Assembly (NCBI GenBank): GCA_964651595.1 | Contig: CAZYYJ010000015.1 | Span: 12,304-76,303, forward strand | Source of the DNA: an uncultured Pseudomonadales bacterium | GTDB taxonomy: Bacteria > Pseudomonadota > Gammaproteobacteria > Pseudomonadales > Azotimanducaceae | DNA: 64,000 nucleotides | Direction of reading: 5' to 3' | Shown: positions 25,594 through 41,547 of the stretch, in pieces | Position numbering within the stretch: the first letter of the stretch is position 1 | Layout: each line of letters begins with the position of its first letter | Program-made: the position numbers and the translations under genes | The notes under the pieces: generated by a model | What the model was told of the DNA's origin: nothing | Database searches by the model: none | Seen by the model: the letters and a program-made list of their open reading frames with translations, nothing else

Positions 25594-25670
25594 CGGAGTG
25601 TAGCTCAGCTTGGTAGAGCACTACGTTCGGGACGTAGGGGCCGGAGGTTCAAATCCTCTCACTCCGACCA
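25594..25670 (+). tRNA. tRNA-Pro (anticodon CGG)
   Basis: Perfect cloverleaf: 7-bp acceptor CGGAGTG/CACTCCG, D-arm GCTC/GAGC, anticodon loop TTCGGGA, T-arm GGAGG-TTCAAAT-CCTCT, discriminator A plus CCA. Confidence 0.9.
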
Positions 25671-25675
25671 ATTCC
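25626..25675 (+). repeat. attL-like direct repeat (3' part of tRNA-Pro)
   Basis: Identical 50-mer TTCGGGACGTAGGGGCCGGAGGTTCAAATCCTCTCACTCCGACCAATTCC. Confidence 0.85.
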
Positions 25676-26012
25676 ATCAATCCCTACAGCGTTAACACGC
25701 ACTAACCCGAAACGTTCTCGAAAACTTTTCGATAACGCTAGTTCACCACTCTCAAAATCGTTCTTCGCTCGTCCAAGATCGACTCTGCAGCCATCAGCAA
25801 TCGCTCTATATCGGGCGTAGCGTATTGCCTACTCAGCCTACCCTGTCTTGAGCCATCCGCGGGTCCCACCCCTTAACCCTTTGGGGCAATTCGTTCTGAG
25901 TTGTCGCTTTCTTATCGACAAACCGCCTATTTTAGATCGCATGGGGTTTGTAACTACAACGACTAAGTAGGCTTTACGTGCGCGAGGGGGTGTGTCCTCG
26001 CCTGGTACCCAA

Positions 26013-27620
26013 TTAGGCCCGCGAAATCTGCTCAAACGAAACGCCGAACTTGTCTAGATACCGCTTCAATCTGTGCGAGTCATTGGTACTCGCTTTTTTC
26101 TCGCGAGAGACAGCAAACAACTGCCGACCTGCTTCCGCCATCGATCTGGACTTTCTACAAACACTGGCGACGTATCCCAGCTGAACACGATCAAATGGAT
26201 CTATCCCTAGTACAGCTTCAGCCCCAAGCAGCGTTGCCAAGAACTCTTCTCCTTCATTGCCGCCAGCAGCTCCGGCCTGCCATCGTAGCTTTAGTAAATC
26301 TATTTCTTGATCGACAATATCCTTGGAGATACGCCCGCCATCTGCCAATGTCGACATCCGCAAAACACTCGAGTTGAGATCGCGAAAGTTGGCGCGCCAT
26401 TCAGCTTCCCCAATGGCAAATTGAACGTAGCGGTCGCGAGCTTCCCGACTGAACCTAATCATAGTGCCAAGTCTCGACCGAGCGTTTTCGACTTCAAAGT
26501 CCAGGTTCGGTTCGATGTCTTCTACACGCTCCTTGAGAGGCGGAAGGTGATAAGTCCAGAGGTCGAGGCGGGCGATTAAATCTTCTCTAAACCGCCCCTC
26601 GCCCACCATCTGCCACAAGTTCTGATTTGTGCCAGCAATAAGCTGAAAGTTGCTGCTGACTTCTTTATCACTGCCGAGCGGAAAGAAGTGTTTCGTCTCA
26701 ATCGCATTGAGCAACATCGCTTGCTCTTCCACGCCCAGCTCGCCGATTTCATCTAGAAACAGAAGCCCATCGTCGGCCTCTCGTAACAGTCCGGCTCGAT
26801 CAGTTGTGGCGCCTGTGAAGGCACCTTTTGCGTGACCAAACAAAGTGGAACTCACCGCGTCTCCTCTTAGCGTCGCGCAGTTCACTGAGACAAAGTTACC
26901 GCCAAATTGAGTACGTTGTTTTTTTAACTCAAAGATCTGCTTCGCCAACTGCGACTTTCCTGCGCCAGTAGGACCGGTTAATAAGATTGGTTCGCTTGAT
27001 CGAATTGATACCTTCTCAATTTGCTCGATCATTGTGTTGAACGCTTTGTTTTTTGTTTGAATACCCTGCTTCAGGTACTCGGTACCCTCTAATTGTTCCA
27101 ATCGAAATCTTGAGGCGATCTGATCATATTTTGAGAGATCTAGATCGATGACATGATATTCGCCTACAGGAAGATCACCTTCCGTTGGCCGGCTGTTCGG
27201 TGGTGAGGTCTGGATTAAGGTTCCAGGCACGTATCGAGCTTCGGTTAGCAGGAACCAACAAATCTGAGCAACGTGAGTGCCCGTTGTCATATGAACCAGA
27301 TAACGCTCTGACTCTATGTCGAATTGATAGTCATCCGTAAAGGATCGAAGTACCCCATATACGTTCGCAAAGTCCCAAGGATCATCTTGCTTAATGACGT
27401 GCTGCACGACCATCGTTTCCGGCGAGATAGTTTCGATATCCCTGGTTACTTGGTCCGCAAGTGATTGGTAGCGCTCTTCTAGAAGCAATTCCAAGCGATC
27501 AACAACAAAGTCATCGTGCTGGCAGAGCGAAACCGTTGGCCGCCACGCATTCCATCTTTTTGAACCTCGCCCCCTGCGATCAAGGTTCGTACCCAACATG
27601 CCAATCACTACTGTCTTCAT
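26013..27620 (-). CDS. rtcR: RtcR, sigma-54-dependent transcriptional activator with N-terminal CARF domain
   Basis: AAA+ sigma-54 activator motifs (LLTGPTGAGKS, the GAFTGA loop as GAFTGATTD, ESELFGH-like), a C-terminal HTH, and a CARF-type N-terminus like RtcR. Divergently placed from rtcBA. Confidence 0.9.
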   Translation of the reverse strand: MKTVVIGMLGTNLDRRGRGSKRWNAWRPTVSLCQHDDFVVDRLELLLEERYQSLADQVTRDIETISPETMVVQHVIKQDDPWDFANVYGVLRSFTDDYQFDIESERYLVHMTTGTHVAQICWFLLTEARYVPGTLIQTSPPNSRPTEGDLPVGEYHVIDLDLSKYDQIASRFRLEQLEGTEYLKQGIQTKNKAFNTMIEQIEKVSIRSSEPILLTGPTGAGKSQLAKQIFELKKQRTQFGGNFVSVNCATLRGDAVSSTLFGHAKGAFTGATTDRAGLLREADDGLLFLDEIGELGVEEQAMLLNAIETKHFFPLGSDKEVSSNFQLIAGTNQNLWQMVGEGRFREDLIARLDLWTYHLPPLKERVEDIEPNLDFEVENARSRLGTMIRFSREARDRYVQFAIGEAEWRANFRDLNSSVLRMSTLADGGRISKDIVDQEIDLLKLRWQAGAAGGNEGEEFLATLLGAEAVLGIDPFDRVQLGYVASVCRKSRSMAEAGRQLFAVSREKKASTNDSHRLKRYLDKFGVSFEQISRA

Positions 27621-27754
27621 ATCTTTCTAAATATATAGCTATCTTTTTGGATAGGTTATTCCAGACTTCTCTGAGAAGATAGAGGGGTGCTGCGGACTAG
27701 AAGATCTATATATATCAAAGGGTTACTGAAACGAGAATGCAAATTTTTATAAGT

Positions 27755-27770
27755 TGGCACGCTTATCGCT
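27755..27770 (+). promoter_or_regulatory. sigma-54 (-24/-12) promoter for rtcBA
   Basis: TGGCACgcttaTCGCT: GG-N10-GC spacing matches the RpoN consensus TGGCAC-N5-TTGC. Lies 50-65 bp upstream of the rtcB ATG and divergent from rtcR. Confidence 0.6.
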
Positions 27771-27821
27771 ATACAGATAACAATCGGAAAATGGCAAGCA
27801 AGTAAGACCAAAGGAATAAAC

Positions 27822-29066
27822 ATGAGCAACGAAGCAGACAGCATTGATCCTTCCTACGAATTGACCCGTGGAAGCGAGGTGGACATTAAGTCTTGGACTA
27901 GGGGCGTCGCTTTTGAAGACGAAGCCCGTGAGCAACTTAAGAACATCTCAACGTTGCCTTTCATTCATAAGTGGATCGCAGTCATGCCCGATGTCCATTT
28001 GGGCAAAGGCGCGACTATCGGCAGCGTTGTACCAACCATTGGCGCGGTGATTCCCGCTGCAGTTGGAGTGGATATCGGGTGCGGCATGATGGCTGTACGC
28101 ACCAGTCTTGTCGCAAATGACTTGCCCGATAGTTTGAGCGGGGTGCGCACCGCTGTTGAAGCAGCGGTCCCGCACGGGCGCTCGGGACGTGCCCGAGGCT
28201 CGAGAGATAAAGGTGCTTGGGGAAATGTTCCCGAAGACGTAGCCGCTGCTTGGACTGACTTGTCTGAAAAGTTCAGCGTGCTGTGTGACAAGCACCCTGT
28301 ATTGAAGAACACGAACAACGTTATTCACTTGGGTACGTTGGGAACCGGGAATCACTTCATCGAGATTTGTCTAGATGAAAAGGACTCTGTTTGGTTCATG
28401 TTGCACAGTGGATCGAGAGGAGTAGGTAACCGTATCGGTACTTACTTCATCGAGCAGGCGAGAAAGGAAATGGAGCGACACCAAATCAACTTGCCTGATC
28501 GTGACTTGGCCTACTTGTCCGAAGGCAGCGAAGGCTTTGGTGACTATGTCGAAGCAGTCGAGTGGGCGCAGACTTTTGCGCGCATCAACCGAGAAGTCAT
28601 GATGGCTCGAGTCATCGGGGCTGTTCGCAGCGAACTCGACATCGCCTTTGAGGCTCGACTGGAAGCCGTAAATTGCCACCACAACTACGTGAATCGTGAA
28701 ACTCACTATGGTGAAGATGTGTTGGTGACCAGGAAAGGTGCCGTGTCTGCTCGCAAGGGTCAGATGGGCATCATTCCCGGAAGCATGGGTGCTCGTTCAT
28801 TTATTGTTCGAGGACTTGGAAACGAAGAGAGTTTCTGTAGCTGCAGCCATGGTGCTGGTCGTGTCATGTCGCGTACAAAGGCAAAGAAACTGGTGAGCTT
28901 GGACGAACATGTCAAAGCAACCGAAGGAGTCGAATGTCGGAAGGACGCTGGAGTGATCGATGAAACGCCTGCCGCATACAAAGACATTGATGCAGTGATG
29001 GCTGCTCAGTCCGACCTTGTCGAAGTGGTTTACACGCTTAAGCAGGTTGTCTGTGTAAAAGGTTAG
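27822..29066 (+). CDS. rtcB: RtcB RNA-splicing ligase (3'-phosphate/5'-OH ligase)
   Basis: Conserved RtcB motifs: MPDVHLGKG, GTGNHF, HNY, SHGAGR. AAGGA Shine-Dalgarno. Confidence 0.92.
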   Translation: MSNEADSIDPSYELTRGSEVDIKSWTRGVAFEDEAREQLKNISTLPFIHKWIAVMPDVHLGKGATIGSVVPTIGAVIPAAVGVDIGCGMMAVRTSLVANDLPDSLSGVRTAVEAAVPHGRSGRARGSRDKGAWGNVPEDVAAAWTDLSEKFSVLCDKHPVLKNTNNVIHLGTLGTGNHFIEICLDEKDSVWFMLHSGSRGVGNRIGTYFIEQARKEMERHQINLPDRDLAYLSEGSEGFGDYVEAVEWAQTFARINREVMMARVIGAVRSELDIAFEARLEAVNCHHNYVNRETHYGEDVLVTRKGAVSARKGQMGIIPGSMGARSFIVRGLGNEESFCSCSHGAGRVMSRTKAKKLVSLDEHVKATEGVECRKDAGVIDETPAAYKDIDAVMAAQSDLVEVVYTLKQVVCVKG

Positions 29067-29137
29067 CCCATTGTCTATTCACTTTAGTGGGAGGGGCTGG
29101 CCAACCCCAATCGAAACTAAACCTAACGGTGACGAAA

Positions 29138-30190
29138 ATGGCAGCAATGGAAATTGACGGCAGTATGGGTGAAGGCGGCGGGCAAGTGCTCAGAACCGCC
29201 CTTACGCTGTCTATGTGCCTGACGCAGCCTATCGCCGTCACTAACATCCGCTCAGGGCGTAAAAAGTCAGGGTTGCTACGCCAACATCTCGCCGCCTTAA
29301 AAGCGGCTGCTGAGATATCGGATGCAGAACTAGAAGGTGCCGAGCTGGGATCTACAGAGATTAGGTTTTTGCCTGGTGTCGTGAAGTCTGGCTCTTACGA
29401 ATTCAAAATTGGTTCAGCTGGTAGTACGACGCTTTTGGCTCAAACGATCATACCTGCACTGAGCATGTTGAAGGAGCAAAGCAGCGTGACCGTGCATGGT
29501 GGTACTCACAACGGCATGGCTCCAAGTGTTGAGTTCGTAGAACTGGCTCTGGTCCCTTTGCTGAAGCGCGCCGGATTAGGCATGGATTCTGACTTGTTGC
29601 GATATGGATTTTATCCAAACGGGGGTGGCACCTGGAAAGCGACAGTCGAACCATGGACCAATGCTCGGTTTGTTGAACTCATCGTACGAGGCAAACCGGT
29701 TTCGAGAGAAGCAGTTGCCACTATCAGCAACCTGCAATCTCACATTGGTGAGCGTGAGCTTGAAAGAGTTGCCAAAAAGCTGGCCTGGACGAACGAAGAA
29801 CTGGTCCTCAAAGAGGTATCAGCGCCGGGCCCCGGGAACTTGCTTTCGTTGAGGTGCGTTTACGAAAACGTCACCGAGGTCTTCGAATCAGTGGGTTCCA
29901 TTGGTTTAAGCGCGGAGAGAGTGGCAGGAAGAGCAATAAGAGATGCTAAGCAATATGTTCAAGGTCGGCATGTTGTTGGTGAGTACTTGGCTGATCAGTT
30001 GCTTCTACCTCTGGTTTTAGGCGCTGGCGGCGTGTTCACCACCGGAGCGCTTAGCAGCCACTGTCGCACCAACATGGCTCTGATAAATCAGATGTTGGGC
30101 GCGGACTATTTCGAGATCGTCGAAGAGATGACAGAGGTGGGGCCGCACTCGACGATAAGAATCCCGAAAGGTTTAGCGCTGGCCCGTTAG
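29138..30190 (+). CDS. rtcA: RtcA RNA 3'-terminal phosphate cyclase
   Basis: N-terminal GEGGGQVLRTALTLS and LRQHL motifs of the RtcA family. Start chosen at MAAMEIDGS, in-frame within the 29087 ORF. Confidence 0.88.
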   Translation: MAAMEIDGSMGEGGGQVLRTALTLSMCLTQPIAVTNIRSGRKKSGLLRQHLAALKAAAEISDAELEGAELGSTEIRFLPGVVKSGSYEFKIGSAGSTTLLAQTIIPALSMLKEQSSVTVHGGTHNGMAPSVEFVELALVPLLKRAGLGMDSDLLRYGFYPNGGGTWKATVEPWTNARFVELIVRGKPVSREAVATISNLQSHIGERELERVAKKLAWTNEELVLKEVSAPGPGNLLSLRCVYENVTEVFESVGSIGLSAERVAGRAIRDAKQYVQGRHVVGEYLADQLLLPLVLGAGGVFTTGALSSHCRTNMALINQMLGADYFEIVEEMTEVGPHSTIRIPKGLALAR

Positions 30191-30304
30191 ACCCAAAGGA
30201 AAACCAGATGGTTTGTTAGCGGAACTGGCTCGTGAGTCCAGCCCGGCGAATGATGCAGCTGAACCTTGGTATTCATTCGTACCAACGAAACAATCTGAAG
30301 CAAT

Positions 30305-30377
30305 AGCTTGTTAGCTCAGTTGGTAGAGCGATCCATTTAGATTGGATTTGTCCCAGGTTCAATTCCTGGACAAGCAC
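30305..30377 (+). ncRNA. tRNA-like element (pseudo-tRNA / possible Y-RNA-like tRNA mimic), anticodon-position UAG, no CCA
   Basis: Cloverleaf: acceptor AGCTTGT/ACAAGCA with an A-A mismatch at 1-72, D-arm GCTC-AGTTGGTA-GAGC, anticodon arm ATCCA-TTTAGAT-TGGAT, 5-nt variable loop, T-arm CCAGG-TTCAATT-CCTGG. Lies immediately downstream of rtcA. Confidence 0.5.
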
Positions 30378-30827
30378 ATTGGGAAAAGCCCTATAACGGC
30401 TTGGGGTTCGACTCCCCTCGAAGGTGATTCCTTCAAAAAGACGGTGGCGCTCGCACATATGAGCTATGGCTTGTGTGTGTTTGCAAGAGCTCGAAGAACC
30501 GTATGGTCCGAGTGCGAAAGCCTTACTCTGGCCTCGCACATTCTGGCTTCACGCAGATTCGAGTTCCGGCTGGGTCGAACTGGCGTCAGTTCCCCTCGTC
30601 TGTTTTAGGAAGAGAGCTGCATTCTATAGTGAAAGCGTGCCGCTGATATGTATTCAACCCGTTGACGTGCAGCTGCACAAACGCGCGTTGACAACTTGAT
30701 GCTGCTGCTAAGTCTAAATGGGGATATGTCTCTTCTTACACAGAGGGTAACCACGTTCCAGAACGACAGAGTGCCACTCTTACTGTGACCGCCCCCACCC
30801 ATGGGGGAAATTTGAGGAGACATACAC

Positions 30828-31970
30828 ATGGTCACGAAAACGATCCGTGTGGCAGAAAATCAGCGGGTACTCTGGTTCCGCGACGGCAACCTAATGGGTG
30901 TGTTGGCTCCTGGAAAGTACAAATTCTGGAAGCGAACACGACATTTGCGATTTGAGTCCTACGACGTCGCAGACGGCGAAGCCGTTTTGCCCAACGCTCA
31001 GTACTTGATTCGTGAGCACAGCGAAATGTTGGGGCAGCACTTGGAAATTCGAGAACTCGAACAGAACCAAGTTGCCTTGATCTCCGTGAACAAGCTAGTC
31101 AAACGTCTGGCCTTGCCCGGTGAAGTGATCGCTTTCTGGAAGAATTCGGTCGATTCCAGCATCGAGGTCGAGAACTTCGCTGAAAGCCTGACCGTTCCCG
31201 ATGAATGGGTTAAGGCTATCAATCAAAGTGGTGACGCTGTTGCGCTGGCAACGCTTAACAAAGCGATATTGCCCGTTACGGTAGATCAGGGTTTCGAAGC
31301 ACTGTTGGTGAACGATGGCGAGATCGCGAGAAGCCTCGCTCCTGGCCGTTATGCGTTTTGGAAACTGGGAAGAGACATAAAAGTCCTCTCAGTAGACAAG
31401 CGTGTGCAGGAAATTGAGATCAACGGTCAGGAGATTCTGACCCGAGATCGGGTTTCACTACGCACCAACGCATCGCTTCAATATCGCATCACGGACGCTG
31501 TTAAAGCGGTTGTTGATACGCCTGATGTGGTCGGATTGGCTTATCGAGCAGTTCAGTTTGCCCTGCGTCGAACGATTGGTTCGCTCACGTTGGACGAACT
31601 ATTGGGTGACAAAACCAAGCTTGGAGACGACGTTCAATCCCAGGTAAGCAGTGAGCTCGCAAATGTGGGTATAGCGGTCACCATGGTTGGCATCAAGGAC
31701 TTCATCTTGCCCGGCGAGATGAAAACGATTTTGAACCAAGTGGTTGAAGCCGAGAAAGTCGCCGAGGCGAATGCAATTCGCCGACGTGATGAAACCCAGG
31801 CAGTCCGAGCACTGGCTAACACGGCAAAGCAGCTGGAAAGCAATGCAATGATGGCCAGGCTTAAGGAGCTAGAAGCACTGCAAACCGTTTCTTCTAGCGT
31901 CGATACCTTGAACGTCTATAACGGACTGGATGGCGTGATGGGTCAACTTGTGAAACTCCAATCCGAATAG
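30828..31970 (+). CDS. SPFH/band-7 (stomatin/prohibitin/flotillin-like) domain protein with N-terminal triple repeat
   Basis: C-terminal SPFH-like region plus coiled-coil (EAEKVAEANAIRRRDETQAV...). Three N-terminal copies of a LAPG-Y-FWK motif. Confidence 0.7.
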   Translation: MVTKTIRVAENQRVLWFRDGNLMGVLAPGKYKFWKRTRHLRFESYDVADGEAVLPNAQYLIREHSEMLGQHLEIRELEQNQVALISVNKLVKRLALPGEVIAFWKNSVDSSIEVENFAESLTVPDEWVKAINQSGDAVALATLNKAILPVTVDQGFEALLVNDGEIARSLAPGRYAFWKLGRDIKVLSVDKRVQEIEINGQEILTRDRVSLRTNASLQYRITDAVKAVVDTPDVVGLAYRAVQFALRRTIGSLTLDELLGDKTKLGDDVQSQVSSELANVGIAVTMVGIKDFILPGEMKTILNQVVEAEKVAEANAIRRRDETQAVRALANTAKQLESNAMMARLKELEALQTVSSSVDTLNVYNGLDGVMGQLVKLQSE

Positions 31971-32029
31971 GAGCGGAGTAAGCTGGCGGTAGCGCTTCGG
32001 CGCTGCCGTAGTTCTATCTGGAATGATCG

Positions 32030-32476
32030 ATGGATAACCGCAAAAAAACCTATGTCTTTGATATGGACGGTACGCTGGCGTTGGTGGACCATCGGCGAGG
32101 ACTCCTGGAGGGAGAGAAGCCAGACTGGCATAGCTTCAATAAGGCATCCCTACTTGATCCCCCGAACGAGCCTGTAAGCAATGTTCTCAAATCCTTGTTT
32201 GCGGCAGGCTTTCAGATTTGGATCGTTAGCGGTAGGAGCGATATTGCAGAGTTAGAAACTCGAGGGTGGCTTACAAAATACGAGATTCCCTTCCACCAAC
32301 TGTTGATGCGATCTGCTTCAGACAACAGACCAGACGATATCCTGAAAAAGGAGTGGGCGCTGAAGTATCAGTTTCCGGAAACAGTTTTAGCGGTTTTCGA
32401 TGACCGTAACTCCGTTGTAAATATGTGGCGAGACCTAAACATTCCTTGTTTCCAGGTCGCCGAAGGAGACTTTTAG
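32030..32476 (+). CDS. stand-alone HAD-family polynucleotide 3'-phosphatase (T4 Pnkp phosphatase-domain-like)
   Basis: DxDGT motif (FDMDGTL). C-terminal AVFDDRNSVVNMWRDLNIPCFQVAEGDF closely matches the C-terminus of the phage T4 Pnkp phosphatase domain (...DDR..VVEMWRR.GV.CWQVASGDF). Confidence 0.75.
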   Translation: MDNRKKTYVFDMDGTLALVDHRRGLLEGEKPDWHSFNKASLLDPPNEPVSNVLKSLFAAGFQIWIVSGRSDIAELETRGWLTKYEIPFHQLLMRSASDNRPDDILKKEWALKYQFPETVLAVFDDRNSVVNMWRDLNIPCFQVAEGDF

Positions 32477-33273
32477 TGTCAATTCCACAGGGTGTTCGAG
32501 ATGAGATCATTCGAAGGCTGAACGCCTGTGAACTAGAACACGGCGTCCGAATCATCTATTGCGCGGAATCTGGATCCAGGGCTTGGGGATTTGCCTCCCC
32601 CGACTCAGACTATGACGTGCGCTTTATTTACGTGCGGCCTAGCGATTGGTACTTGTCATTTGACGTTGAACGCAGGAGAGACGTCATCGAGTATCCGATT
32701 GTCGACGAAATCGATATCAATGGCTGGGACTTACGAAAAGCTCTCTATCTGTTTACTCGTACCAACGGCGCCTTATTGGAGTGGTTGGGAAGCCCTATTG
32801 TGTATAGAGAAATCGGAGAAACCGCTGCGAACCTTCGAGAACTGGCACGCTCACATATCAGCGATATCGCACTCTGTTACCACTACAGTCACATGGCCCG
32901 TCGCAACGCTCAACAATTCCTTGAGAAAGATGAAGTGAAACTCAAGAAATACTTCTACGTGCTGCGACCATTACTCGCGATTCGGTGGATTCAGAACGGT
33001 AAGGGAGTACCCCCTGTTCCGTTTGAAGAACTACTACACGCAGAAGCGCCAGCAAGCCTAATCGGTGAGGTAGAGAAGCTTCTTGAAGTGAAGAAGAGAA
33101 CCCCGGAGCTAGGAGTCGGACCTAGGATTCAGGAGATTAATGACTTCGTGTTTGGTGAGTTTGAGCGCTATGGAGACCAGTTCTCGGGGCAAGGTAGACC
33201 AGAGCAGGAAAGCTCGGAGCGACGGGAAGAACTTAACGATGTATTTCGGAGTGCGGTGAATACACAGCCCTAA
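32476..33273 (+). CDS. Pol-beta-superfamily nucleotidyltransferase (COG3541-like)
   Basis: GS-x9-DSDYD nucleotidyltransferase motif (ESGSRAWGFASPDSDYDVRF). GTG start overlaps the phosphatase stop (TAGTG), indicating translational coupling. Confidence 0.6.
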   Translation: MSIPQGVRDEIIRRLNACELEHGVRIIYCAESGSRAWGFASPDSDYDVRFIYVRPSDWYLSFDVERRRDVIEYPIVDEIDINGWDLRKALYLFTRTNGALLEWLGSPIVYREIGETAANLRELARSHISDIALCYHYSHMARRNAQQFLEKDEVKLKKYFYVLRPLLAIRWIQNGKGVPPVPFEELLHAEAPASLIGEVEKLLEVKKRTPELGVGPRIQEINDFVFGEFERYGDQFSGQGRPEQESSERREELNDVFRSAVNTQP

Positions 33274-33354
33274 CGTACCTCCAGCAAGCTGTGAGCCGCT
33301 AGCAAGTCGCTCAGTACTATATATCTATCCAGTTTTGTGGCTTAGTATTAGGCC

Positions 33355-35853
33355 ATGATCAATCCCGAAGAAGGCAGCAGCAACACAGACAACAACCTCG
33401 TAGCCGCAGAGTTACTGGACCGGTATGCGCAGCTCGATTTGTCCGACGCAAACGAAGCAGAGACGCGACTCAAACTAATAGATCGGATTTTCTTTGAGCT
33501 TTTAGGATGGTCACATGACGATGTTACTGTGGAGGAGCGTGTAACAGAGGATTCTGGGCTTGCATACACAGACTACGTTTTCCGAACCGCTAACACAGCC
33601 TTCATAGTTGAGGCCAAGCGGGTCGGCCAAACCTTCAAGTCTGTAGGAGATATGCGTCGTTCCAAACTTACAGGCAACTTGGTGAAAGGCCAGTCCGGGG
33701 ACGCGATCAAACAAGTCCGAGATTACTGCAGACAAAAGTCTATTCAATTTGCAGTCGCGACAAATGGAGCTCAGTGGGTCGTGTTTCCAGCAGTTCGAAC
33801 TGATCAGGTTAGTTTTGCAAACTCTTCTGCAATCATCTTCGACTCTCTGGCCACTGTTTTAGGCCAGGAGTTCGACGACTTCTACGAGCTGCTATCGCGC
33901 GACGCAGTTATAAATGGACATCTAGAACTCGAGCTTCTCGGTAGAAGTGAAGACCAGATCGAAGAACGAAGACTGAACGCATTTTATGGTTCGACTGGAA
34001 GATCAAAACGAAACCCCATCTATCCCCTGATTCAAGACGCTATTACGGAGGCATTTACTGACTCAATAATCGACAAGGACGATCAATTACTAGAGAAGTG
34101 CTACGTACCATCTGCCGATAGGATCAGGTTCGACAAAAAAATCAAAATGCATCTGCAGCGAGCGGATAGCCTATTTAGCAGGCAAGCGGCGAGACCGCTC
34201 CGCCGAAGCTCCGATGCCAAAGTACTTTCCGAATCAGTGGAGGCAGCTCGCGGCCTTGGGCGTCCTCTTGCAGTACTCGTTCTTGGGCCAGTTGGGGCGG
34301 GTAAGACAACTTACCTAAACTACTCCAGACGAGTTTCGGCGAAGGCGTTCTTTTCAGAGAAGAAAGACCGACTTTACCCTCAATGGATTCAAATTGATTT
34401 CCGCAAGCTCAGTGGTTCGGAATCGCCAACTGACTTTGTGTACTCATGCCTGCTGGAATACATGCGTGACGAGCCGCTCTTAAAAGATTGGGGGCGCGCT
34501 GTTCGGCCAGCTTACGGGAAGGACATCGAATCGCTAAAGGCCGGTCCCTTACATCTTTTGGCGAAGAACGAAGAAAAATTCGAAGAGAAAATCTCTGAAC
34601 TGGTGCTGAAAGACTATGAGTCTGTAACTCCGTATGTGGACAAAGTCCTTGGATGGCTTGGGGGTCACGAACCTATTTTCTTAGTTGTCGACAATGTGGA
34701 TCAATTTGAGTCCTCTGATTTTCAATCAAAGATTTTCTCCGAATGTATTGCGATCGCCAGCCGAATTGGACTGAATCTGGTGATGTCGATGCGCGAATCA
34801 ACCTATATCGAACATCGTCACTCAGCGACATTTGACGCGTTCGATTTCGACCCAATTCAGATCGAACCCCCTCAGATTGGGCCGGTTCTTTCTAGGCGCT
34901 TTTTCGTTGCAAAAAACATCCTCAAAAATCGGCCCGGCGAGTTTCGTACACAGAGTGGACCGCTGTTTCGCGCTGCCGATTTGTCGGTTTTCATGGATGT
35001 CGTACAGAGTTCGGTTCTCGGCACCGAAGTTGGAACACGGATAGAAGTCCTTGCTGACGGCGATGTGAGGCTAGCGTTGCGCATGACCAGGGAGTTTCTA
35101 GAGTCCGGCTATTCAGATCCCGCAAAAGCAATTGCAGTAGTCGAACGCGGAGAGACTTACACAATGCCCAAACACGAGGCCCTCCGCTCGATCATCCTGG
35201 GGAACAAAACAACATACTCTGAGGAATTGTCTGTATTGGGGAACCCCTTTGACTCACGCCAAGGTATTACCAATCTCCAGTTGTTAAGAACGTTCATTTT
35301 AAATGCGTTAGTGAGCCTGAGCAGTGATGGAAGATTTAAGAAACTTGATGGCCCGACTATAAGGGATGAGTGCAACAAGATAGGCGTTTCTCAGGACATA
35401 ACGCTAAACACACTAAAGGACCTGTGTCGCCTGAACTTTGTCAGCACGTCGTCCCACGCAGAAGCTGATTTCACCTCGAGCTTCTTCCCGAGCCGATTGG
35501 GCGGCTTCATCATCCGCGACTTAATGGCAGATATGACTTTCGTGGAGAACGTGCTTCTAGATACATTTATCGACGAAAAAGAGACCTGGGAAATCCTGAG
35601 AAAGCTAAGCGACGAAATACAGGCGGAACGACAGCCAACAAAACGACTCAAAGTCAGGGTCAAACGTGTTAAAGCTTTCTACGAATACATGGAGGAGCTA
35701 TACACTCCACTAGCAGCCGAAGCCCAACGGAGAGCTCTACCAAAAGAGTGGTGTAGTAATCCGCTTAAAGAGAACAAGACTCGGCTCTGGAACAACTGTA
35801 ATCAGGCGATCAAGTCCTCCACCAGGCACTATCCCGCAAAGGCCAAAAGGTAA
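33355..35853 (+). CDS. PD-(D/E)xK nuclease (HsdR-N/Mrr-like) / P-loop NTPase fusion protein, 832 aa
   Basis: N-terminal EAETRLKLIDRIFFELLGW...YTDYVF...FIVEAKR, a restriction-endonuclease-like D...EAK motif. Central Walker A VLGPVGAGKTT and Walker B IFLVVDNVDQFE. Long alpha-helical C-terminus. Confidence 0.6.
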   Translation: MINPEEGSSNTDNNLVAAELLDRYAQLDLSDANEAETRLKLIDRIFFELLGWSHDDVTVEERVTEDSGLAYTDYVFRTANTAFIVEAKRVGQTFKSVGDMRRSKLTGNLVKGQSGDAIKQVRDYCRQKSIQFAVATNGAQWVVFPAVRTDQVSFANSSAIIFDSLATVLGQEFDDFYELLSRDAVINGHLELELLGRSEDQIEERRLNAFYGSTGRSKRNPIYPLIQDAITEAFTDSIIDKDDQLLEKCYVPSADRIRFDKKIKMHLQRADSLFSRQAARPLRRSSDAKVLSESVEAARGLGRPLAVLVLGPVGAGKTTYLNYSRRVSAKAFFSEKKDRLYPQWIQIDFRKLSGSESPTDFVYSCLLEYMRDEPLLKDWGRAVRPAYGKDIESLKAGPLHLLAKNEEKFEEKISELVLKDYESVTPYVDKVLGWLGGHEPIFLVVDNVDQFESSDFQSKIFSECIAIASRIGLNLVMSMRESTYIEHRHSATFDAFDFDPIQIEPPQIGPVLSRRFFVAKNILKNRPGEFRTQSGPLFRAADLSVFMDVVQSSVLGTEVGTRIEVLADGDVRLALRMTREFLESGYSDPAKAIAVVERGETYTMPKHEALRSIILGNKTTYSEELSVLGNPFDSRQGITNLQLLRTFILNALVSLSSDGRFKKLDGPTIRDECNKIGVSQDITLNTLKDLCRLNFVSTSSHAEADFTSSFFPSRLGGFIIRDLMADMTFVENVLLDTFIDEKETWEILRKLSDEIQAERQPTKRLKVRVKRVKAFYEYMEELYTPLAAEAQRRALPKEWCSNPLKENKTRLWNNCNQAIKSSTRHYPAKAKR

Positions 35854-35968
35854 CTCGATAAAATCTCGATAACTCAGTCCTGCTTAGTCCTGCTCTGTCG
35901 TGCAATTCGCTACAGTCGCACTCTAAATAAAGTTAATTAAATCAATAGGTTAGATAGTATATTTAACT

Positions 35969-36018
35969 TTCGGGACGTAGGGGCCGGAGGTTCAAATCCT
36001 CTCACTCCGACCAATTCC
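35969..36018 (+). repeat. attR-like direct repeat (copy of tRNA-Pro 3' end)
   Basis: Exact 50-bp match to 25626..25675. Flanking sequence diverges immediately on both sides. Confidence 0.85.
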
Positions 36019-36078
36019 TCCAGACTCCTGCGTTCATTCAGGGCTAACCGAAACGCCCCGAAGGGGAAACGTCGAGCG

Positions 36079-36987
36079 TTAACTCCGTAGCAGATTGGTT
36101 ATTGGCACCGTGATGCACGCCTGTGTATCAGCCAGTTGCTTGTCGCCAATGATCCCCTGAAACCAGGTGCTGCTGGCCAGATCGTGAAAGTACTGACTGC
36201 CCGGATAGTAAACCAGCATCGCCTGGTCGAATTTGTGATCGTGCTCCAGCGCTACCGTTGCTCCGATGTGCATCGGGCCGTAACGCAGGTCGGCCATCAA
36301 ACCGAGCATGGCTGAACCATAGGAATCATTGGCTGCTTGCTGTTCAGCGCTGCCGTTGCGGGCCAGATTGACAATCAGAATCGCATCGCGCCCCAGGCTG
36401 CTTGCGTGCTGCAGCAGTGCCGATGAGGCGCCGGCAGGATTCGGTTCCGAGCTTGGTTCAAAGGGCAGAACGTCCGGCGCAAACGTCACTCCCCGCCATA
36501 GCTTCATGGCCAGGAACATCTGGTGCAGCAACACGTTGAGGCTGGCAGAGCGCTCGAACCCGTGTGTGTATTTTGCCGCGAACTGCGCGAGAGCAGCCCC
36601 GATCTCCGGGCGCTTGAGGTAATCCCGATAGGCTTCCCGGCTGGCAAACTGCTGCAACAGGATTGCTTGCCACTCCAGAGACTCGCCAAAGGTCTGCGAA
36701 ATCTGCCGGGACCGAATGCCGGTGTGGATGACCTGGCCGGCGTAGATCAGCGTCGCCTCGGTGTCTGCTGCGGCATTCACCAGGGCTGTCAGTGGTGTCA
36801 TGTATGCCTCACTTTCGCGCGCGCGCACGAAAGTGAGGACGTGAAACGCGTCGCCATGGAACGGGTTCTGGTAGTCCTGTACGGCATTGAGCCGCGCATC
36901 CATGTAGTGGTTGTGCTGATTGACCATGAGCGCGATCACGATCAGAAGGAACACGAAGCCCAGCAAGCCGAGTGTTTTGATTTTCAC
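36079..36987 (-). CDS. hypothetical exported/membrane-anchored protein
   Basis: GTG start preceded by a GGAGGGAG Shine-Dalgarno. N-terminal hydrophobic anchor (LGLLGFVFLLIVIALMV). No recognisable family. Confidence 0.55.
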   Translation of the reverse strand: MKIKTLGLLGFVFLLIVIALMVNQHNHYMDARLNAVQDYQNPFHGDAFHVLTFVRARESEAYMTPLTALVNAAADTEATLIYAGQVIHTGIRSRQISQTFGESLEWQAILLQQFASREAYRDYLKRPEIGAALAQFAAKYTHGFERSASLNVLLHQMFLAMKLWRGVTFAPDVLPFEPSSEPNPAGASSALLQHASSLGRDAILIVNLARNGSAEQQAANDSYGSAMLGLMADLRYGPMHIGATVALEHDHKFDQAMLVYYPGSQYFHDLASSTWFQGIIGDKQLADTQACITVPITNLLRS

Positions 36988-37076
36988 GTCACTCCCTCCT
37001 CGGTGGGTTGGCCCTTCCGTTGCAATACTAACCCAACGCAGAGAGCGTGGTTGCAGACGGGGCACCGAGACCGAAT

Positions 37077-38129
37077 CTAACGGTCGATCTCGAGAACGAT
37101 GTTGCCGATATGGGTTTTCGTTTGGAACGCGCGTTGCGCGTCCGAGATGGAGGCGAGCGGATAGGTGGCAGCAACCAGCGGTAAAACCTGCTCCTGTTCA
37201 ATCAGCTTCAGGAGCTTGCCGAACACGGCTGGTTCCAGCACCGTGCACCCGAAGAAGCTCAGGTCTTTCAGGTACAACGTCCTGATATCGAGAGACACGA
37301 TCGGACCTGCGATAGCGCCAGCAACGGCGTAGCGGCCACCATGGCGAAGCACTTCCAGCAAGCCGGGCCAGGCAGCGCCAGCGACCAGATCGATCACCAC
37401 ATCTACGCTGTTCGCGCCAAGACTGACGGTGAGATCCTCGTCGCGCGTCATAGTTTGATCAGCCCCCAGCTCTCTCAGCTTGCCGGCTTTGGGCTCGCTG
37501 GTAACAGCGACAACTTCAGCACCTCGCGCTCTGGCCAGCTGGACGGCCGCCGAACCAACGCCACCCGATGCACCTGTAACGAGCACTCTGTCCTGTTCCG
37601 TCACGGCAGCGCGCGTCAGCATGTTTTCTGCGGTCGAATAGGAGCACGGGAATGTGGCCAGCTCCACGCTGGTATAGCGACTGTCGATCTTGTGCGCATG
37701 TCGAGATGCAACGACGGTGTATTGTGCAAAGCCTCCGTCGCACTCGGATCCGAAGTACCACGGCTTCTGCAGGACGTGTCCGTTTGCCTCCCGCAACAGA
37801 GGTTCGACGAGAACGCGCTCGCCGATGCGAGATTGGTCGACATCACTTCCCGCTTCTACGATCGATCCGCAGACGTCGGCGCCTTGAATGCGCGGAAACG
37901 TCAGCGGGTTTCCTGACCAGGTGGCGTCTGCTGCCTGCTGGCTGTTCTTTGAATACCAGGCCTGGCGTGTGTTGATGTCGGTGTTGTTCACGCCCGCCGC
38001 TGCAACACGAATCAGCACGTCACGAGGGCCCGGCCGCGGGATCGGAACGTTCTCTCGATAGACCAGGTTCTCAGGTCCCCCATGGCCTACGAGGACTGCT
38101 GCCTTCATCAATCGTGGAATGTCGACCAC
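37077..38129 (-). CDS. MDR-family zinc-type alcohol dehydrogenase / quinone oxidoreductase-like protein
   Basis: GroES-like N-terminal region and Rossmann GASGGVGS motif. Confidence 0.8.
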   Translation of the reverse strand: MVDIPRLMKAAVLVGHGGPENLVYRENVPIPRPGPRDVLIRVAAAGVNNTDINTRQAWYSKNSQQAADATWSGNPLTFPRIQGADVCGSIVEAGSDVDQSRIGERVLVEPLLREANGHVLQKPWYFGSECDGGFAQYTVVASRHAHKIDSRYTSVELATFPCSYSTAENMLTRAAVTEQDRVLVTGASGGVGSAAVQLARARGAEVVAVTSEPKAGKLRELGADQTMTRDEDLTVSLGANSVDVVIDLVAGAAWPGLLEVLRHGGRYAVAGAIAGPIVSLDIRTLYLKDLSFFGCTVLEPAVFGKLLKLIEQEQVLPLVAATYPLASISDAQRAFQTKTHIGNIVLEIDR

Positions 38130-38277
38130 CTGCTTTCCACACCGGATAAACCGGGTTGATGCTCGACGTTGGTGTCGACAGCGTCAAGCGCGCGCCCGCT
38201 TGCGCCTGTAGTGGTGGGTTGGCGTAAAGTGCAACGACGGCACATGCCGTTGAGTTCGGCCCTGCAGGAGGTGGAAG

Positions 38278-38997
38278 GTGGATACCAGCATTGAACCGGA
38301 ACAACACTACGCGAAGCATGGATATGCCGTTTTTCGCGATCAGCTGTCTCCGGCGCTGGTAGCGGATCTGACGCACGAGTACCGGAAGGTCCCCGAAACC
38401 TCGTATCTGCTGGAGCCGCATTTCCGTTCGTACCGTCACGTCTCGCAGCACAGTGAGCTGTTTCGCTCTCTTGCGCTGCGGGGCTTTTTTCCACAACTGG
38501 CGGCCGCGTTGATCGGTGTGCCTGCGGTTCGTCTCCTTTTCGATCAGTTCATCGTCAAACCGGCCGGGGTGGAAGGAACGCCATGGCATCAGGATCAACC
38601 GAGTCTGTGTTTCGACAGTTTTGGCATCTGCACTTTCTGGATTCCGCTGGTTGATATCCGCGTCGGGTCGGGCGGCGTGCAGTTCTTTCACGACGACCGA
38701 AGAGCAAAGGGACCAGTGGACGGTATTGGTTTGAGAGTAGAAACCACTAAGCAGGGGCTGAGCGCTCAATCCCTCCCGCTCGTAACAGGTTCTTTCACGG
38801 TGCACGATGGCTGGGCGATTCACCGGGCGGAAGCCAACGCCACGCCTAACGATCGCCCCGCCATCAATCTGGTTTACTTTGATGCCGGCGCGCGTGTGGA
38901 GGCGTTGTCCGGACGAGACTGGCGAGCGGCTCGCGACAAGTTTTTCCCGGGTCGGGAACCCGGAGACGTGGCTGACAACTGCCCGGTTGCCGGGTGA
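38278..38997 (+). CDS. phytanoyl-CoA dioxygenase (PhyH)-family protein
   Basis: PhyH-like N-terminus (HYAKHGYAVFRDQL) and WHQD...H iron-ligand pattern. Confidence 0.65.
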   Translation: MDTSIEPEQHYAKHGYAVFRDQLSPALVADLTHEYRKVPETSYLLEPHFRSYRHVSQHSELFRSLALRGFFPQLAAALIGVPAVRLLFDQFIVKPAGVEGTPWHQDQPSLCFDSFGICTFWIPLVDIRVGSGGVQFFHDDRRAKGPVDGIGLRVETTKQGLSAQSLPLVTGSFTVHDGWAIHRAEANATPNDRPAINLVYFDAGARVEALSGRDWRAARDKFFPGREPGDVADNCPVAG

Positions 38998-39034
38998 AAT
39001 CTCTCGTTCGCTCGGGTGTGACGGTGCGCGAGCG

Positions 39035-39421
39035 TTACGTCATTTCCATGAGCTGAACCAGGTTGCCGCAGGTGTTGTCCAGCACAGCCATGCGGACGGA
39101 ACCTGCATCTACGGGCGCCTGGGTGAACGTCACGCCGAGGCTGCTCAATCGCTCGTACTCGGCATCCAGGTTGTCCACCTGAAACGACGTCGCGGGGATG
39201 CCGTCGGCAACGAGGGCTTCCCGGTAGGGCCTGACGGCAGGATGTTCGCTGGGTTCCAGCAGCAGTTCGGGGCCATGAGGCGCGTCTGGAGAGACAAGGG
39301 TCAGCCAGCGATGCTTCCCCATGGGAACATCGTTTTTTACAACGAAACCGAGTTTTTCCGTATAGAAATCATGGGCTTGCGCCTGATTGTGGACAAATAC
39401 GCTCGTGATGTGGATTTTCAT
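39035..39421 (-). CDS. VOC/glyoxalase-family protein
   Basis: 128 aa. MKIHITSVFVHNQAQAHDFYTEKLGF is a typical glyoxalase-fold N-terminus. Confidence 0.75.
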   Translation of the reverse strand: MKIHITSVFVHNQAQAHDFYTEKLGFVVKNDVPMGKHRWLTLVSPDAPHGPELLLEPSEHPAVRPYREALVADGIPATSFQVDNLDAEYERLSSLGVTFTQAPVDAGSVRMAVLDNTCGNLVQLMEMT

Positions 39422-39480
39422 GGTTCCGGTTCTCTCAGAAAAGGCGTCGGCAATCGGCCGCCCTTATTTCAGCGACGAGG

Positions 39481-39903
39481 TCAGGTGTGGGCCACAGCAG
39501 TGAGTCGCCGGTGCGACAGCACGAGATACATGGCTACCGCCACGTCCACTAACGCACAGAATGCCGGATACCAGCTGAATACGCCCGGGTTGATAAAGAA
39601 GACGTCGTGATAGAAATCGTACAAGCCATGGCTGAACCAGCCGGCAGCGACGACGAGCAGCGTCCAGTGGGATCGTATGCGCCAGACCAGGAAGCCGGTA
39701 AGGGTGTATGGCACGCCATACAGCAGCTCTTTGAGAATGACTGAGCCATCCAGGGCCAGCATGCCGAACAACATGTAGTACACCGGCAGGGTAGCAAGGA
39801 ACAGCGGCCAGGCAGCCGAATCCCACTGCCTTTTGCGGATGAGATAGATGGTGGGAATGATGAACACAATCCCGACAATCATGCCGATGACGTCAGGCGA
39901 CAC
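39481..39903 (-). CDS. hypothetical small membrane protein
   Basis: 4 predicted TM helices. Start overlaps the GST stop by 11 nt. Confidence 0.5.
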   Translation of the reverse strand: MSPDVIGMIVGIVFIIPTIYLIRKRQWDSAAWPLFLATLPVYYMLFGMLALDGSVILKELLYGVPYTLTGFLVWRIRSHWTLLVVAAGWFSHGLYDFYHDVFFINPGVFSWYPAFCALVDVAVAMYLVLSHRRLTAVAHT

Positions 39904-40813
39904 GTTTGAGGACCTCTTTTTTCAGTCCGATACCGAACAAGTGTTCAACGCCGGCCTTGACGCGGAAAGCTGTGCTCATGGTCTTGTGTCTGCCCATGAC
40001 GCCTTCGCGGAAAGACGGACGTTGAGAGATTCGCTGGAACCAGGAGAAGTAGGCCGGAAACAGCTCGTCGAACGGGTAGTCGCACTCGATCAAGCGAAGG
40101 GTTTTCATGGCCCAGATGATATCTGCCATTGTCAGCTCGTTGCCGGTCATGAAGCTTCTTCCATCCTGCAATCGCTGCTCGTGCGCCTGAAATGCCGCGT
40201 TCAGTTTGTCCAGATGTTCCATGTACACCGTGTCGGGAATCGAACGGTTGTCGTAGCCCGTGTAGAAACTGACGAGTTTCTCGCCGTCGTCAGCGTCTCT
40301 GAGCAGGGCCTTCAAGTGTGCCTCCTCCGCGCTCGACAGGCGAGCGAGCCCTCGAAGCCCCCAGCGGAACGTCACGAAGCGGATTGAGCGATGCAGGGCT
40401 TTGCCCAGATCGGTCAGGGCCTGGGCATCGGCCATCACTTCCGGGTTGTGCTTCGGCACCAGCGGGGTGCCACCGAACGCGTCATCGAGGTAGGCCACGA
40501 TATCCATGGATTCGATGTGCAGCTCACCGTCGTGCACAAGCGCGGGCACTACCAGGTTGGGTTGGATCTGAGCGTAGGTTTCGGTCATGTGTTCTTTCTT
40601 CACCAGCGATACCTGCCTGCTTACCCAGGCGCCATCCTGACCGGCGAGGGAGGCGGCATCGTCCGCATCAAAGCGAACTTCCCGCCCGCGTACCAGGCCC
40701 TTCTCGTGCAGGGCAAAGCGAACCCGCTGAGCGCACGGGGCCGCATCGAAGTGAAACAGGTGCACACCTTCCAGTTTGTCGACGATCGGGCTTTCTGGAT
40801 TTTCGATCTTCAT
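39893..40813 (-). CDS. glutathione S-transferase-family protein
   Basis: Thioredoxin-like N-terminal GST domain and helical C-terminal domain. ~300 aa, larger than classical GSTs. Confidence 0.75.
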   Translation of the reverse strand: MKIENPESPIVDKLEGVHLFHFDAAPCAQRVRFALHEKGLVRGREVRFDADDAASLAGQDGAWVSRQVSLVKKEHMTETYAQIQPNLVVPALVHDGELHIESMDIVAYLDDAFGGTPLVPKHNPEVMADAQALTDLGKALHRSIRFVTFRWGLRGLARLSSAEEAHLKALLRDADDGEKLVSFYTGYDNRSIPDTVYMEHLDKLNAAFQAHEQRLQDGRSFMTGNELTMADIIWAMKTLRLIECDYPFDELFPAYFSWFQRISQRPSFREGVMGRHKTMSTAFRVKAGVEHLFGIGLKKEVLKRVA

Positions 40814-40829
40814 TTCAATTCTCCGCTGT

Positions 40830-40851
40830 ATTTATGTACCGTATCGCATAA
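40830..40851 (+). promoter_or_regulatory. candidate TetR operator (inverted repeat) in the GST/tetR divergent intergenic region
   Basis: TTTATG-N10-CATAAA inverted repeat. Confidence 0.35.
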
Positions 40852-40892
40852 AATAAATGGCGGTCAACGATTAATTTGCGAAAAGGTACAAA

Positions 40893-41483: not shown

Positions 41484-41547
41484 TTGTGCCGGTACATCGT
41501 TACGCGGGTTTGCTAGGCTGAAAGAAGCGCCGTAAGGCAGGCACCGT

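Follow-up and report, generated by a model that had tools for sequence, protein, structure and literature searches.

The 3′ end of a tRNA-Pro(CGG) gene in an uncultured Pseudomonadales bacterium (class Gammaproteobacteria, family Azotimanducaceae) is occupied by a 10.3-kb segment that is, with high probability, a composite and recently acquired genomic island. The segment lies within the window analyzed here, a stretch of 64,000 nucleotides from contig CAZYYJ010000015.1 (GenBank assembly GCA_964651595.1, positions 12,304 to 76,303 of the forward strand), and coordinates refer to this window unless another locus is named. In the explanation we favor, the island entered the tRNA gene by site-specific recombination, its own integrase being now gone, and it would carry two functionally separate cargoes. 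The first, at 25980–33260, is an RNA-repair operon of an already described class, supplemented by a HAD phosphatase gene and predicted to be controlled by RtcR and sigma-54. The second, at 33355–35853, is an unrelated stand-alone gene for an 832-aa nuclease-AAA+/STAND protein, which would not be a partner of the operon.

The presumed host integration target, tRNA-Pro(CGG) (25594–25670, + strand; ARAGORN; Rfam RF00005, 65.5 bits), is an intact gene. A preliminary description of this DNA had reported a perfect 50-bp repeat of the tRNA-Pro 3′ end around about 10.4 kb of AT-richer, integrase-less DNA, and these observations hold with small amendments. The direct repeat comprises the last 48 nt of tRNA-Pro and 5 downstream bases, 53 nt in all with a single mismatch, 50 nt being perfect, and the copies enclose 10.3 kb. 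The attL-like copy is found at 25623–25675 (+), and the attR-like copy, a partial tRNA-Pro 3′ end with the mismatch at its third base, at 35966–36018 (+). In the repeat search, a 28-mer of this border repeat occurred exactly twice in the window and in none of 100 shuffled controls. The island has a GC content of 49.9% and the host one of 63.0%; against the 63.4 ± 0.8% of 10.3-kb host windows, the island lies at z = −16.9. The tetranucleotide L1 distance between island and host is 0.50, versus 0.087 ± 0.009 for host windows (approximately 45 standard deviations above), and third-position GC (GC3) is 51–57% in island genes and 67–77% in flanking genes.

No island open reading frame (ORF) matched an integrase or recombinase family in the Pfam/NCBIfam profile search. 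A recombinase was likewise not found among the called genes of the flanks, which encode a TonB receptor and TauD on the left (4 kb) and a 302-aa protein without a family match, ADH, PhyH, glyoxalase, GST, TetR, a PAS kinase and others on the right (10 kb). An integrase would not fit into the non-coding gaps of the island (338, 450, and 112 bp) and is thereby excluded there; the left arm (25676–26012) is itself non-coding, its sole ORF (25838–26035) having no Pfam/NCBIfam match. The segment is thus confirmed as a compositionally foreign, integrase-less insertion at the tRNA-Pro 3′ end and, since no recombinase family matches the island or the called flanking genes, it is either a remnant or an element mobilized in trans. 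Like known integrase-less tRNA-island remnants and trans-mobilized elements, it is bordered on both sides by a repeat of a tRNA 3′ end, is foreign in composition and carries accessory genes. It differs from tRNA-inserted islands in that no integrase, excisionase or transfer genes remain in it. Both repeat copies and the intervening island are present in three independent metagenome assemblies from different samples, two of which also reach into both host flanks. Because three independent assemblies contain both repeats and the island, the arrangement is not an assembly chimera. Directly to the right of the island, about 5 kb (36019–41500) has an intermediate GC content of 57–60%, versus 63–65%, and a GC3 of 67–73%. 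This stretch, which encodes the 302-aa protein, ADH, PhyH, glyoxalase, GST and TetR, could have been acquired at the tRNA hotspot earlier than the island and have since ameliorated in part.

The RNA-repair block is also found in two metagenomic loci, L013 and L014, which are the two nearest relatives of the window (Band-7 identity of 95% and 79%, respectively). In both, the gene order is exactly that of the window, with a divergent rtcR followed by rtcB, rtcA, a tRNA-like gene and the genes for Band-7, HAD and RlaP. The DNA identity of this seven-part module to the window is 91% for L013 and about 70% for L014, and each locus represents a different genomic context. In a blastn comparison, L013 matched the window at 91% identity over 25980–33260 and nowhere else (25676–25979 is not shared), and the 7.3-kb unit from rtcR through RlaP therefore sits in two genomic contexts; from these alignments, the rtcR–RlaP block reads as a laterally mobile unit. 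The unit shared with L013 stops 13 bp before the RlaP stop codon. The proposal that the cargo was horizontally transferred is in agreement with the foreign composition, the tRNA repeat and the L013 and L014 contexts. The further proposal that the whole cargo is devoted to RNA repair is correct in part: most of it is predicted RtcR-controlled healing and sealing machinery, and the unit shared with L013 leaves out the 832-aa gene. Downstream of the module in L013 are genes encoding an amidohydrolase, a 1134-aa TPR protein and a patatin. Candidate conflict genes follow the module in both relatives, namely the TPR protein and patatin phospholipase genes in L013 (9419–13923, −) and a 935-aa AAA_16 ATPase gene in L014 (13686–16493, −), and these are unrelated to the 832-aa protein of the window.

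More distantly, relatives of the Band-7 protein number in the thousands and bear the annotation “slipin family protein.” We surveyed 83 Band-7 loci, consisting of the window, L013, L014 and 80 genome loci with Band-7 relatives of 37–44% identity. Within 10 kb, the 80 distant loci contain full-length RtcB (43 loci), RtcR (25), RtcA (20) and RlaP (14). Of the 82 other loci, 73 (72 of the 80 distant loci, and L013) have a tRNA-like gene on the strand of Band-7 and no more than 800 nt upstream of it, the median spacer being 356 nt. As summarized in papers that cite them (10.1101/312249; PMC6514570; PMC7824862; 10.64898/2025.12.29.696909), Burroughs and Aravind in 2016 defined RNA-ligase-associated RlaP, recognized RtcB, Band-7, b7a-tRNA and RlaP as a class, and saw this class as horizontally spread counter-ribotoxin repair systems. 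By gene content, the rtcR–RlaP block is assigned to this class, and our survey agrees. The window shares with the class RtcB, Band-7 with a same-strand upstream tRNA-like gene, RlaP, and a sporadic, laterally transferred distribution. It differs, as far as the class is known from citing papers, in having RtcA and RtcR together, in its location as a whole unit inside a tRNA-flanked island, and in the addition of a stand-alone HAD_PNKP gene coupled to RlaP, which occurs in three of the 83 Band-7 loci. The composition had been thought undescribed. This does not hold for the combination of RtcB, Band-7, tRNA-like RNA and RlaP; it does hold for the HAD-Pnkp addition and carriage on a tRNA island, which are the only features that are unusual against the class as those papers summarize it. 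The locus shows cleanly, in a natural setting, the lateral transfer of an RNA-repair operon complete with its regulation, and such transfer fits the view of these systems as counter-weapons exchanged between genomes. Part of the repair module also occurs in a predicted viral contig from IMG/VR (IMGVR_UViG_2667528155_000005), in which adjacent Band-7 (36% identity) and RlaP (49%) genes are located at the extreme end (166–2100); this suggests that part of the module can be carried by phages or prophages.

The second cargo (33355–35853, +) encodes an 832-aa protein with a PD-(D/E)xK nuclease domain, an Orc/Cdc6-like AAA+/STAND NTPase domain, and a helical C-terminal region with a winged helix. 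Its profile matches are weak, to HSDR_N and to STAND/AAA_16. The nuclease domain is of the HsdR-N type and resembles type IIG restriction enzymes, with residues D73, E86 and K88, and the NTPase domain contains the Walker A motif GPVGAGKTT and the Walker B motif VVDNVDQ. The three nuclease residues, the Walker A core G...G.GKTT and the Walker B core DN.DQ are invariant in 30 homologs. The family has more than 430 members of about 815–830 aa, the named ones mostly from Gammaproteobacteria, and homologs have precomputed matches to HSDR_N or HSDR_N_2 together with KAP_NTPase, AAA_16 or nSTAND5. The protein also matches phrog_14719, a family without an assigned function. PDB sequence searches with a profile and with the N-terminal 270 aa returned nothing significant. 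In fold, the protein resembles Orc/Cdc6, TnsC, BrxC and NLRs, with the AAA+ domain of Orc/Cdc6 as the best match, ahead of NLRs. It shares with Avs-like proteins, KAP NTPase fusions and type IV restriction enzymes an N-terminal PD-(D/E)xK nuclease, a central P-loop NTPase of NLR-, Cdc6- or BrxC-like fold and a helical C-terminal domain. Typical Avs proteins are longer than 832 aa. Although architecture and fold are compatible with an Avs-type protein, no PADLOC Avs/AVAST model matches, and it was not classed as one. Phage defense by KAP NTPase fusions has recently been demonstrated (PMC13552941).

For the neighborhoods of the 832-aa family, we compiled 26 loci with up to 10 kb of flank; DNA comparison of the flanks reduced these to 13 distinct gene contexts (four genomic or metagenomic, two on plasmids and seven on viral contigs), in addition to three with about 24–25% identity. 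Like nuclease-STAND/AAA+ single-gene immunity proteins, the relatives adjoin toxin-antitoxin and restriction genes and occur on plasmids and predicted viral contigs. Their neighbors include csrA-tRNA-Ser and HsdM, HepT/MNT, RelE/Xre with Phd, and, in Marinomonas, HigBA with Fic. Relatives are found on plasmids of Klebsiella, Enterobacter and Serratia, one being annotated as a “predicted type IV restriction endonuclease,” and on 20 predicted viral contigs in IMG/VR. The closest relative outside the species (67% identity; L005, 9611–12472) lies directly downstream of tRNA-Ser after csrA and is followed by hsdM. From this placement it follows that the family recurs at the edges of tRNA-associated variable regions. 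None of rtcR, rtcB, rtcA, Band-7, HAD or RlaP is found in the 26 loci, and no relative of the 832-aa protein is found in the 82 other Band-7 loci. Given an HsdR-N-type nuclease and an Orc/Cdc6-like ATPase with a winged helix, the target is predicted to be DNA rather than RNA, and the protein is most likely an independent passenger and a candidate NTP-dependent anti-mobile-element nuclease. Adjacency inside the island is not evidence of partnership, and the gene deserves study as a stand-alone candidate defense nuclease.

The gene calls of the preliminary description were all borne out, those for proteins by the profile hidden Markov model searches that it had suggested and that for the RNA by ARAGORN and Rfam. 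The rtcR gene (26013–27620, −) encodes a sigma-54 enhancer-binding activator with a CARF-type RtcR N-terminal domain (NF038308, 766 bits, cut-off 650; PF06956, E = 1.8e-80; PF00158, E = 8.7e-49); an alternative called start would yield 528 aa and end the gene at 27599. It is divergent from rtcB, with 201 bp between them. A sigma-54 promoter had been listed together with rtcB and rtcA, and a predicted promoter-like site (TGGCACgcttaTCGCT, 27755–27770, +) does lie at the expected place, 52 nt upstream of the rtcB ATG. The site has one mismatch to TGGCAC-N5-TTGCW, a motif that by itself occurs at chance frequency in the window. In 13 of 25 related loci, a TGGCAC-N5-TNGC sequence lies downstream of where the divergent rtcR starts, at a distance of no more than 450 bp (TCGC or TTGC in 11, TGGC in one and TAGC in one), and the sites of L013 and L014 are identical or nearly identical to that of the window. 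Scans for sigma-70 promoters and intrinsic terminators gave fewer hits than shuffled controls and did not define transcript ends. The rtcB gene (27822–29066, +; PF01139, 433 bits, E = 2.6e-129, full length) encodes an RNA ligase of the type that seals 3′-phosphate or 2′,3′-cyclic phosphate ends onto 5′-OH ends. The rtcA gene (29087–30190, +; NF003246, 378 bits, cut-off 352; PF01137, PF05189), with an alternative ATG start at 29147, encodes an RNA 3′-terminal phosphate cyclase. RtcA of the window is 59% identical to that of L014 (8203–9309), while RtcR, RtcB, Band-7, HAD and RlaP are 77–89% identical; the low value may reflect replacement of rtcA within the module or a relaxation of the constraint on it.

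This arrangement has precedents in the rtcR-rtcBA locus of Escherichia coli and the rsr-yrlBA-rtcBA operon of Salmonella, which likewise combine a divergent rtcR (CARF plus sigma-54 activator), a sigma-54 promoter, rtcB and rtcA. The Salmonella operon, like the window, also encodes a structured tRNA-like RNA and a scaffold protein (YrlA and Rsr/Ro60, respectively). However, the place of Ro60/TROVE is taken in the window by an SPFH protein as the candidate scaffold, a b7a tRNA-like RNA with a second element stands in for the Y RNA, and the HAD and RlaP genes are extra. RtcR oligomerizes and switches on the operon, and RtcA generates the activating ends (PMC7790460). Induction by tRNA fragments with 2′,3′-cyclic phosphate ends, and ligation, have been shown in Salmonella and E. 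coli only (PMC7790460); by orthology, we infer that the rtc genes of the window would behave in the same way.

A Band-7-associated tRNA-like RNA of the b7a-tRNA type (30305–30377, +; ARAGORN; Rfam tRNA, 59 bits) is encoded 450 nt upstream of the Band-7 gene on the same strand. Its minimum-free-energy fold is a class I cloverleaf with the anticodon loop UUUAGAU (30336–30342), although the folding energy by itself is not significant (z = −1.56). ARAGORN labels it Leu-UAG. The body is missing the long variable arm that bacterial tRNA-Leu carries, the first acceptor pair contains a mismatch, which the Rfam alignment flags, and CCA is not encoded; the RNA is consequently not a genuine tRNA-Leu.

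Directly downstream is a second conserved, putative structured element (30380–30434, +), which has no Rfam match. In the window it consists of a GGGAAAA motif, a hairpin (AAGCC/GGCUU) abutting a T-arm-like hairpin (GGGG-UUCGACU-CCCC), and a further hairpin (GAAGG/CCUUC). Its general form is a GG(U/A)AA motif and a hairpin of 4–5 bp stacked on the T-arm-like hairpin, whose loop reads UUCGAMU, with another hairpin behind it. Of 74 loci, 38 have a T-arm-like motif after the tRNA-like RNA; it belongs to the short element in 35 and to a second full tRNA-like gene in three. The element is conserved in L013 (4524–4599) and L014 (about 9500–9580). The second pair of the T-stem covaries (GC in 13, CG in 12, UA in six and AU in three). 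Other hairpin pairs also covary in a hand-made alignment, which is indicative only: this alignment was selected for pairing, so that the variety of pair types counts and not the percentage paired. MAFFT with RNAalifold retrieved the T-arm-like stem alone. The element probably belongs to the same non-coding RNA as the tRNA-like RNA. A 77-aa ORF at 30466–30699, between the element and Band-7, has no family match, lies in a region that does not align with L014 and was treated as non-coding.

The anticodon loops differ among close relatives with nearly identical bodies, being UUUAGAU in the window, UAAAACA (without U33) in L013 (4480–4486) and a 6-nt loop in L014. Among 24 pairs with bodies at least 85% identical, which are not phylogenetically independent, body divergence was 9.6% and loop divergence 48%, and only four pairs had the same loop. 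Loops of 6, 8 or 9 nt are present in at least 10 of 73 relatives. This variability suggests selection on the loop. The hypervariable loop and the second element are cheap leads to the function of the Band-7 RNA-protein pair.

The Band-7 gene itself (30828–31970, +; PF01145, E = 1.7e-26) encodes a predicted soluble SPFH (“slipin”) protein. In its AlphaFold model (pLDDT 81.5), N-terminal beta repeats precede the SPFH domain and a long C-terminal helix. Foldseek matched the model to the cages of stomatin, HflK/C and prohibitin (E about 1e-15) and aligned it with the major vault protein over 425–478 columns. No transmembrane segment was evident when the sequence was read by eye, no predictor having been used. 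On this modeled structure, it is plausible that the protein is a candidate soluble oligomeric scaffold for the RNA and repair enzymes, and a soluble, vault-like RNA-protein assembly is a possibility. The Band-7/RNA pair was without experimental validation as of 2018 in the account given by one report (10.1101/312249).

The distinctive feature of the window-type variant is the gene downstream of Band-7, which encodes a stand-alone HAD phosphatase of the T4 Pnkp phosphatase-domain type and a putative RNA 3′-phosphatase (32030–32476, +; PF25109, E = 1e-29). The protein matches phrog_415 and phrog_505, both “polynucleotide kinase” (E = 1.8e-45 and 2.5e-36, respectively), and its DxDGT nucleophile motif is intact (FDMDGTL). 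Because it is only 148 aa long with a HAD domain and nothing else, and no 5′-kinase (P-loop) domain is found in it or in any island ORF, it is a Pnkp-like phosphatase and not Pnkp. Among the 83 Band-7 loci, tblastn and a custom HMM (E ≤ 10) found the HAD gene in the window, L013 and L014 and in none outside this clade. The RlaP nucleotidyltransferase gene (32476–33273, +; PF10127, E = 1.5e-85, full-length profile; phrog_14344) encodes a Pol-beta fold with an intact GS...DxD motif. One nucleotide is shared between its start codon and the HAD stop codon, and the HAD gene is thus predicted to be translationally coupled to RlaP. Pfam names PF10127 “RlaP, RNA repair pathway DNA polymerase beta family.” Two Pseudomonas RlaPs add 1–2 NMP onto RNA 3′-OH ends in vitro, and a proposed role of RlaP is to defeat “smart” ribotoxins, RloC among them, which remove a nucleotide in addition to cutting (10.64898/2025.12.29.696909).

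The pairing of the HAD and RlaP genes offers a concrete answer to part of an open question, in that RlaP wants a 3′-OH, the breaks made by ribotoxins carry a 3′ phosphate, and a phosphatase would supply the substrate. The logic of end healing followed by sealing, and a HAD protein of the Pnkp phosphatase family (PF25109; phrog_415, phrog_505), are shared with the phage T4 Pnkp/Rnl1 and bacterial Pnkp/Hen1 systems. Those systems differ from the window, which has neither a kinase domain nor an ATP-dependent 5′-phosphate ligase and whose sealer, RtcB, needs the very 3′ phosphate that the HAD protein would remove.

Taken together, the genes are consistent with the following scheme. Ribotoxins or anticodon nucleases would cut tRNA or rRNA, leaving 2′,3′-cyclic phosphate and 5′-OH ends, and such ends would activate RtcR, after the Salmonella precedent and by orthology. 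RtcB would reseal clean breaks, and RtcA would re-cyclize 3′-phosphate ends. At nucleotide-depleted ends, the HAD protein may strip the 3′ phosphate and the coupled RlaP may restore one or two nucleotides. From synteny and fold, the SPFH protein and the tRNA-like RNA could serve as a scaffold or as a substrate mimic.

The composite, recently acquired island has to be weighed against other explanations, and several observations count against it. The genes could be ancestral to the lineage, or the contig could be a chimera formed at a repeated tRNA sequence. The host is known from few metagenome assemblies only, and no empty tRNA-Pro site, which would join tRNA-Pro directly to the right host flank sequence beyond the island (TCCAGACTCCTG... 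/ TCCAGACTCCTGCG), was found in any relative by scanning metagenome contigs with the flanking TauD or by protein look-ups. The relatives in the TauD scan are at most 64% identical and do not share the tRNA-Pro and right-flank gene order. Look-ups of the exact TauD, the 302-aa right-flank protein and their 90%-identity cluster representatives gave contigs that show island junctions or stop earlier. Every contig of the host species with the tRNA-Pro end has an island junction there. Because no empty site was found, acquisition is argued from the repeat and the composition only. However, ancestral genes or a chimera would leave unexplained the extreme z-score and tetranucleotide distance, the near-perfect 53-nt repeat, which reconstitutes the tRNA, the 7.3-kb block at 91% identity in a different genomic context, and both junctions in three independent assemblies from different samples, and we regard this explanation as extremely unlikely. 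Others of these observations concern the parts of the island. To our knowledge, no function has been established experimentally in any organism for the SPFH protein, the tRNA-like RNA or the HAD protein. The branch from HAD to RlaP would yield ends that RtcB cannot seal directly, since RtcB needs a 3′ phosphate, and the authors of the RlaP study themselves state that RtcB cannot join the resulting 3′-OH end (10.64898/2025.12.29.696909). The sharper puzzle is thus the route by which RlaP-extended 3′-OH ends would return to a 3′-phosphate-dependent RtcB. For the 832-aa protein, PADLOC has no known defense model over the full length, only the nuclease domain being matched. The separation of the two cargoes is questioned by the location of the 832-aa gene 82 bp downstream of RlaP on the same strand with no terminator predicted between them, and by its near-identical composition (GC 48.2% versus 50.6% for the Rtc block); the gene and the operon may consequently share a transcript and a donor. 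In addition, a different AAA_16 ATPase (935 aa) is encoded 1.8 kb downstream of the L014 module and a patatin near that of L013, and a loose, class-level association of Rtc modules with conflict genes is possible. The position of the 832-aa gene, its composition and the AAA_16 gene of L014 would also favor the view of the preliminary description, in which the island is one self-contained conflict module: the 832-aa protein would damage RNA as the effector or toxin, with Rtc, HAD and RlaP as its dedicated repair or immunity arm. That description had itself proposed a gene-neighborhood comparison as a test of the pairing, and the comparison failed: with co-occurrence in 0 of 26 loci (13 distinct contexts) on the 832-aa side and in 0 of 82 on the Band-7 side, a pairing of toxin and repair is unsupported. 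Moreover, the 91%-identical module of L013 does not quite reach the RlaP stop codon, with the unrelated amidohydrolase gene coming next, and both the HsdR-N/type IIG-like nuclease and the Orc/Cdc6-like ATPase with a winged helix are DNA-directed architectures. A single conflict module is, in our view, very unlikely, and the composite island with two unrelated cargoes is preferred.

Within the composite island, the role of the tRNA-like RNA can also be read differently. It could be an ordinary extra decoding tRNA that supplements the pool and is not a cofactor of the SPFH protein, as would fit its 59-bit score on the Rfam tRNA model, its cloverleaf fold, the large arrays of apparently normal tRNA genes in several related Band-7 loci, and the tRNA arrays co-regulated with rtcB in cyanobacteria (PMC8421152). 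A decoding role is difficult to reconcile with a Leu-UAG anticodon on a class I body that has no long arm, a mismatched first acceptor pair and no CCA, with the loops of the nearest relatives (UAAAACA without U33, and 6 nt), or with the 6-, 8- or 9-nt loops of at least 10 of 73 relatives. The position upstream of Band-7, fixed in 73 of 82 other loci, and the conserved extra element that follows are equally at odds with it, and we consider an ordinary tRNA unlikely. The hypervariable anticodon loop on a conserved body gives rise to a decoy or sentinel reading, which is speculative and, on balance, rather unlikely. Here the RNA would not be a passive scaffold; its loop would be bait tuned to anticodon nucleases, held on a soluble, possibly cage-forming SPFH assembly. 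Cleavage could free a 5′ half with a cyclic phosphate that switches on RtcR, or the bait could soak up the nuclease, and HAD and RlaP might then rebuild trimmed ends. If this were true, the mobile module would counter ribotoxins as an RNA-based device for both alarm and repair.

Large same-strand tRNA arrays around Band-7 and RtcB are found in six of the surveyed loci (L086, L089, L050, L081, L049 and L034), with up to 34 (L089), 28 (L086) and 19 (L050) ARAGORN calls within 6 kb. We found no literature on an association of tRNA arrays with Band-7, and arrays co-regulated with rtcB are known from cyanobacteria (PMC8421152).

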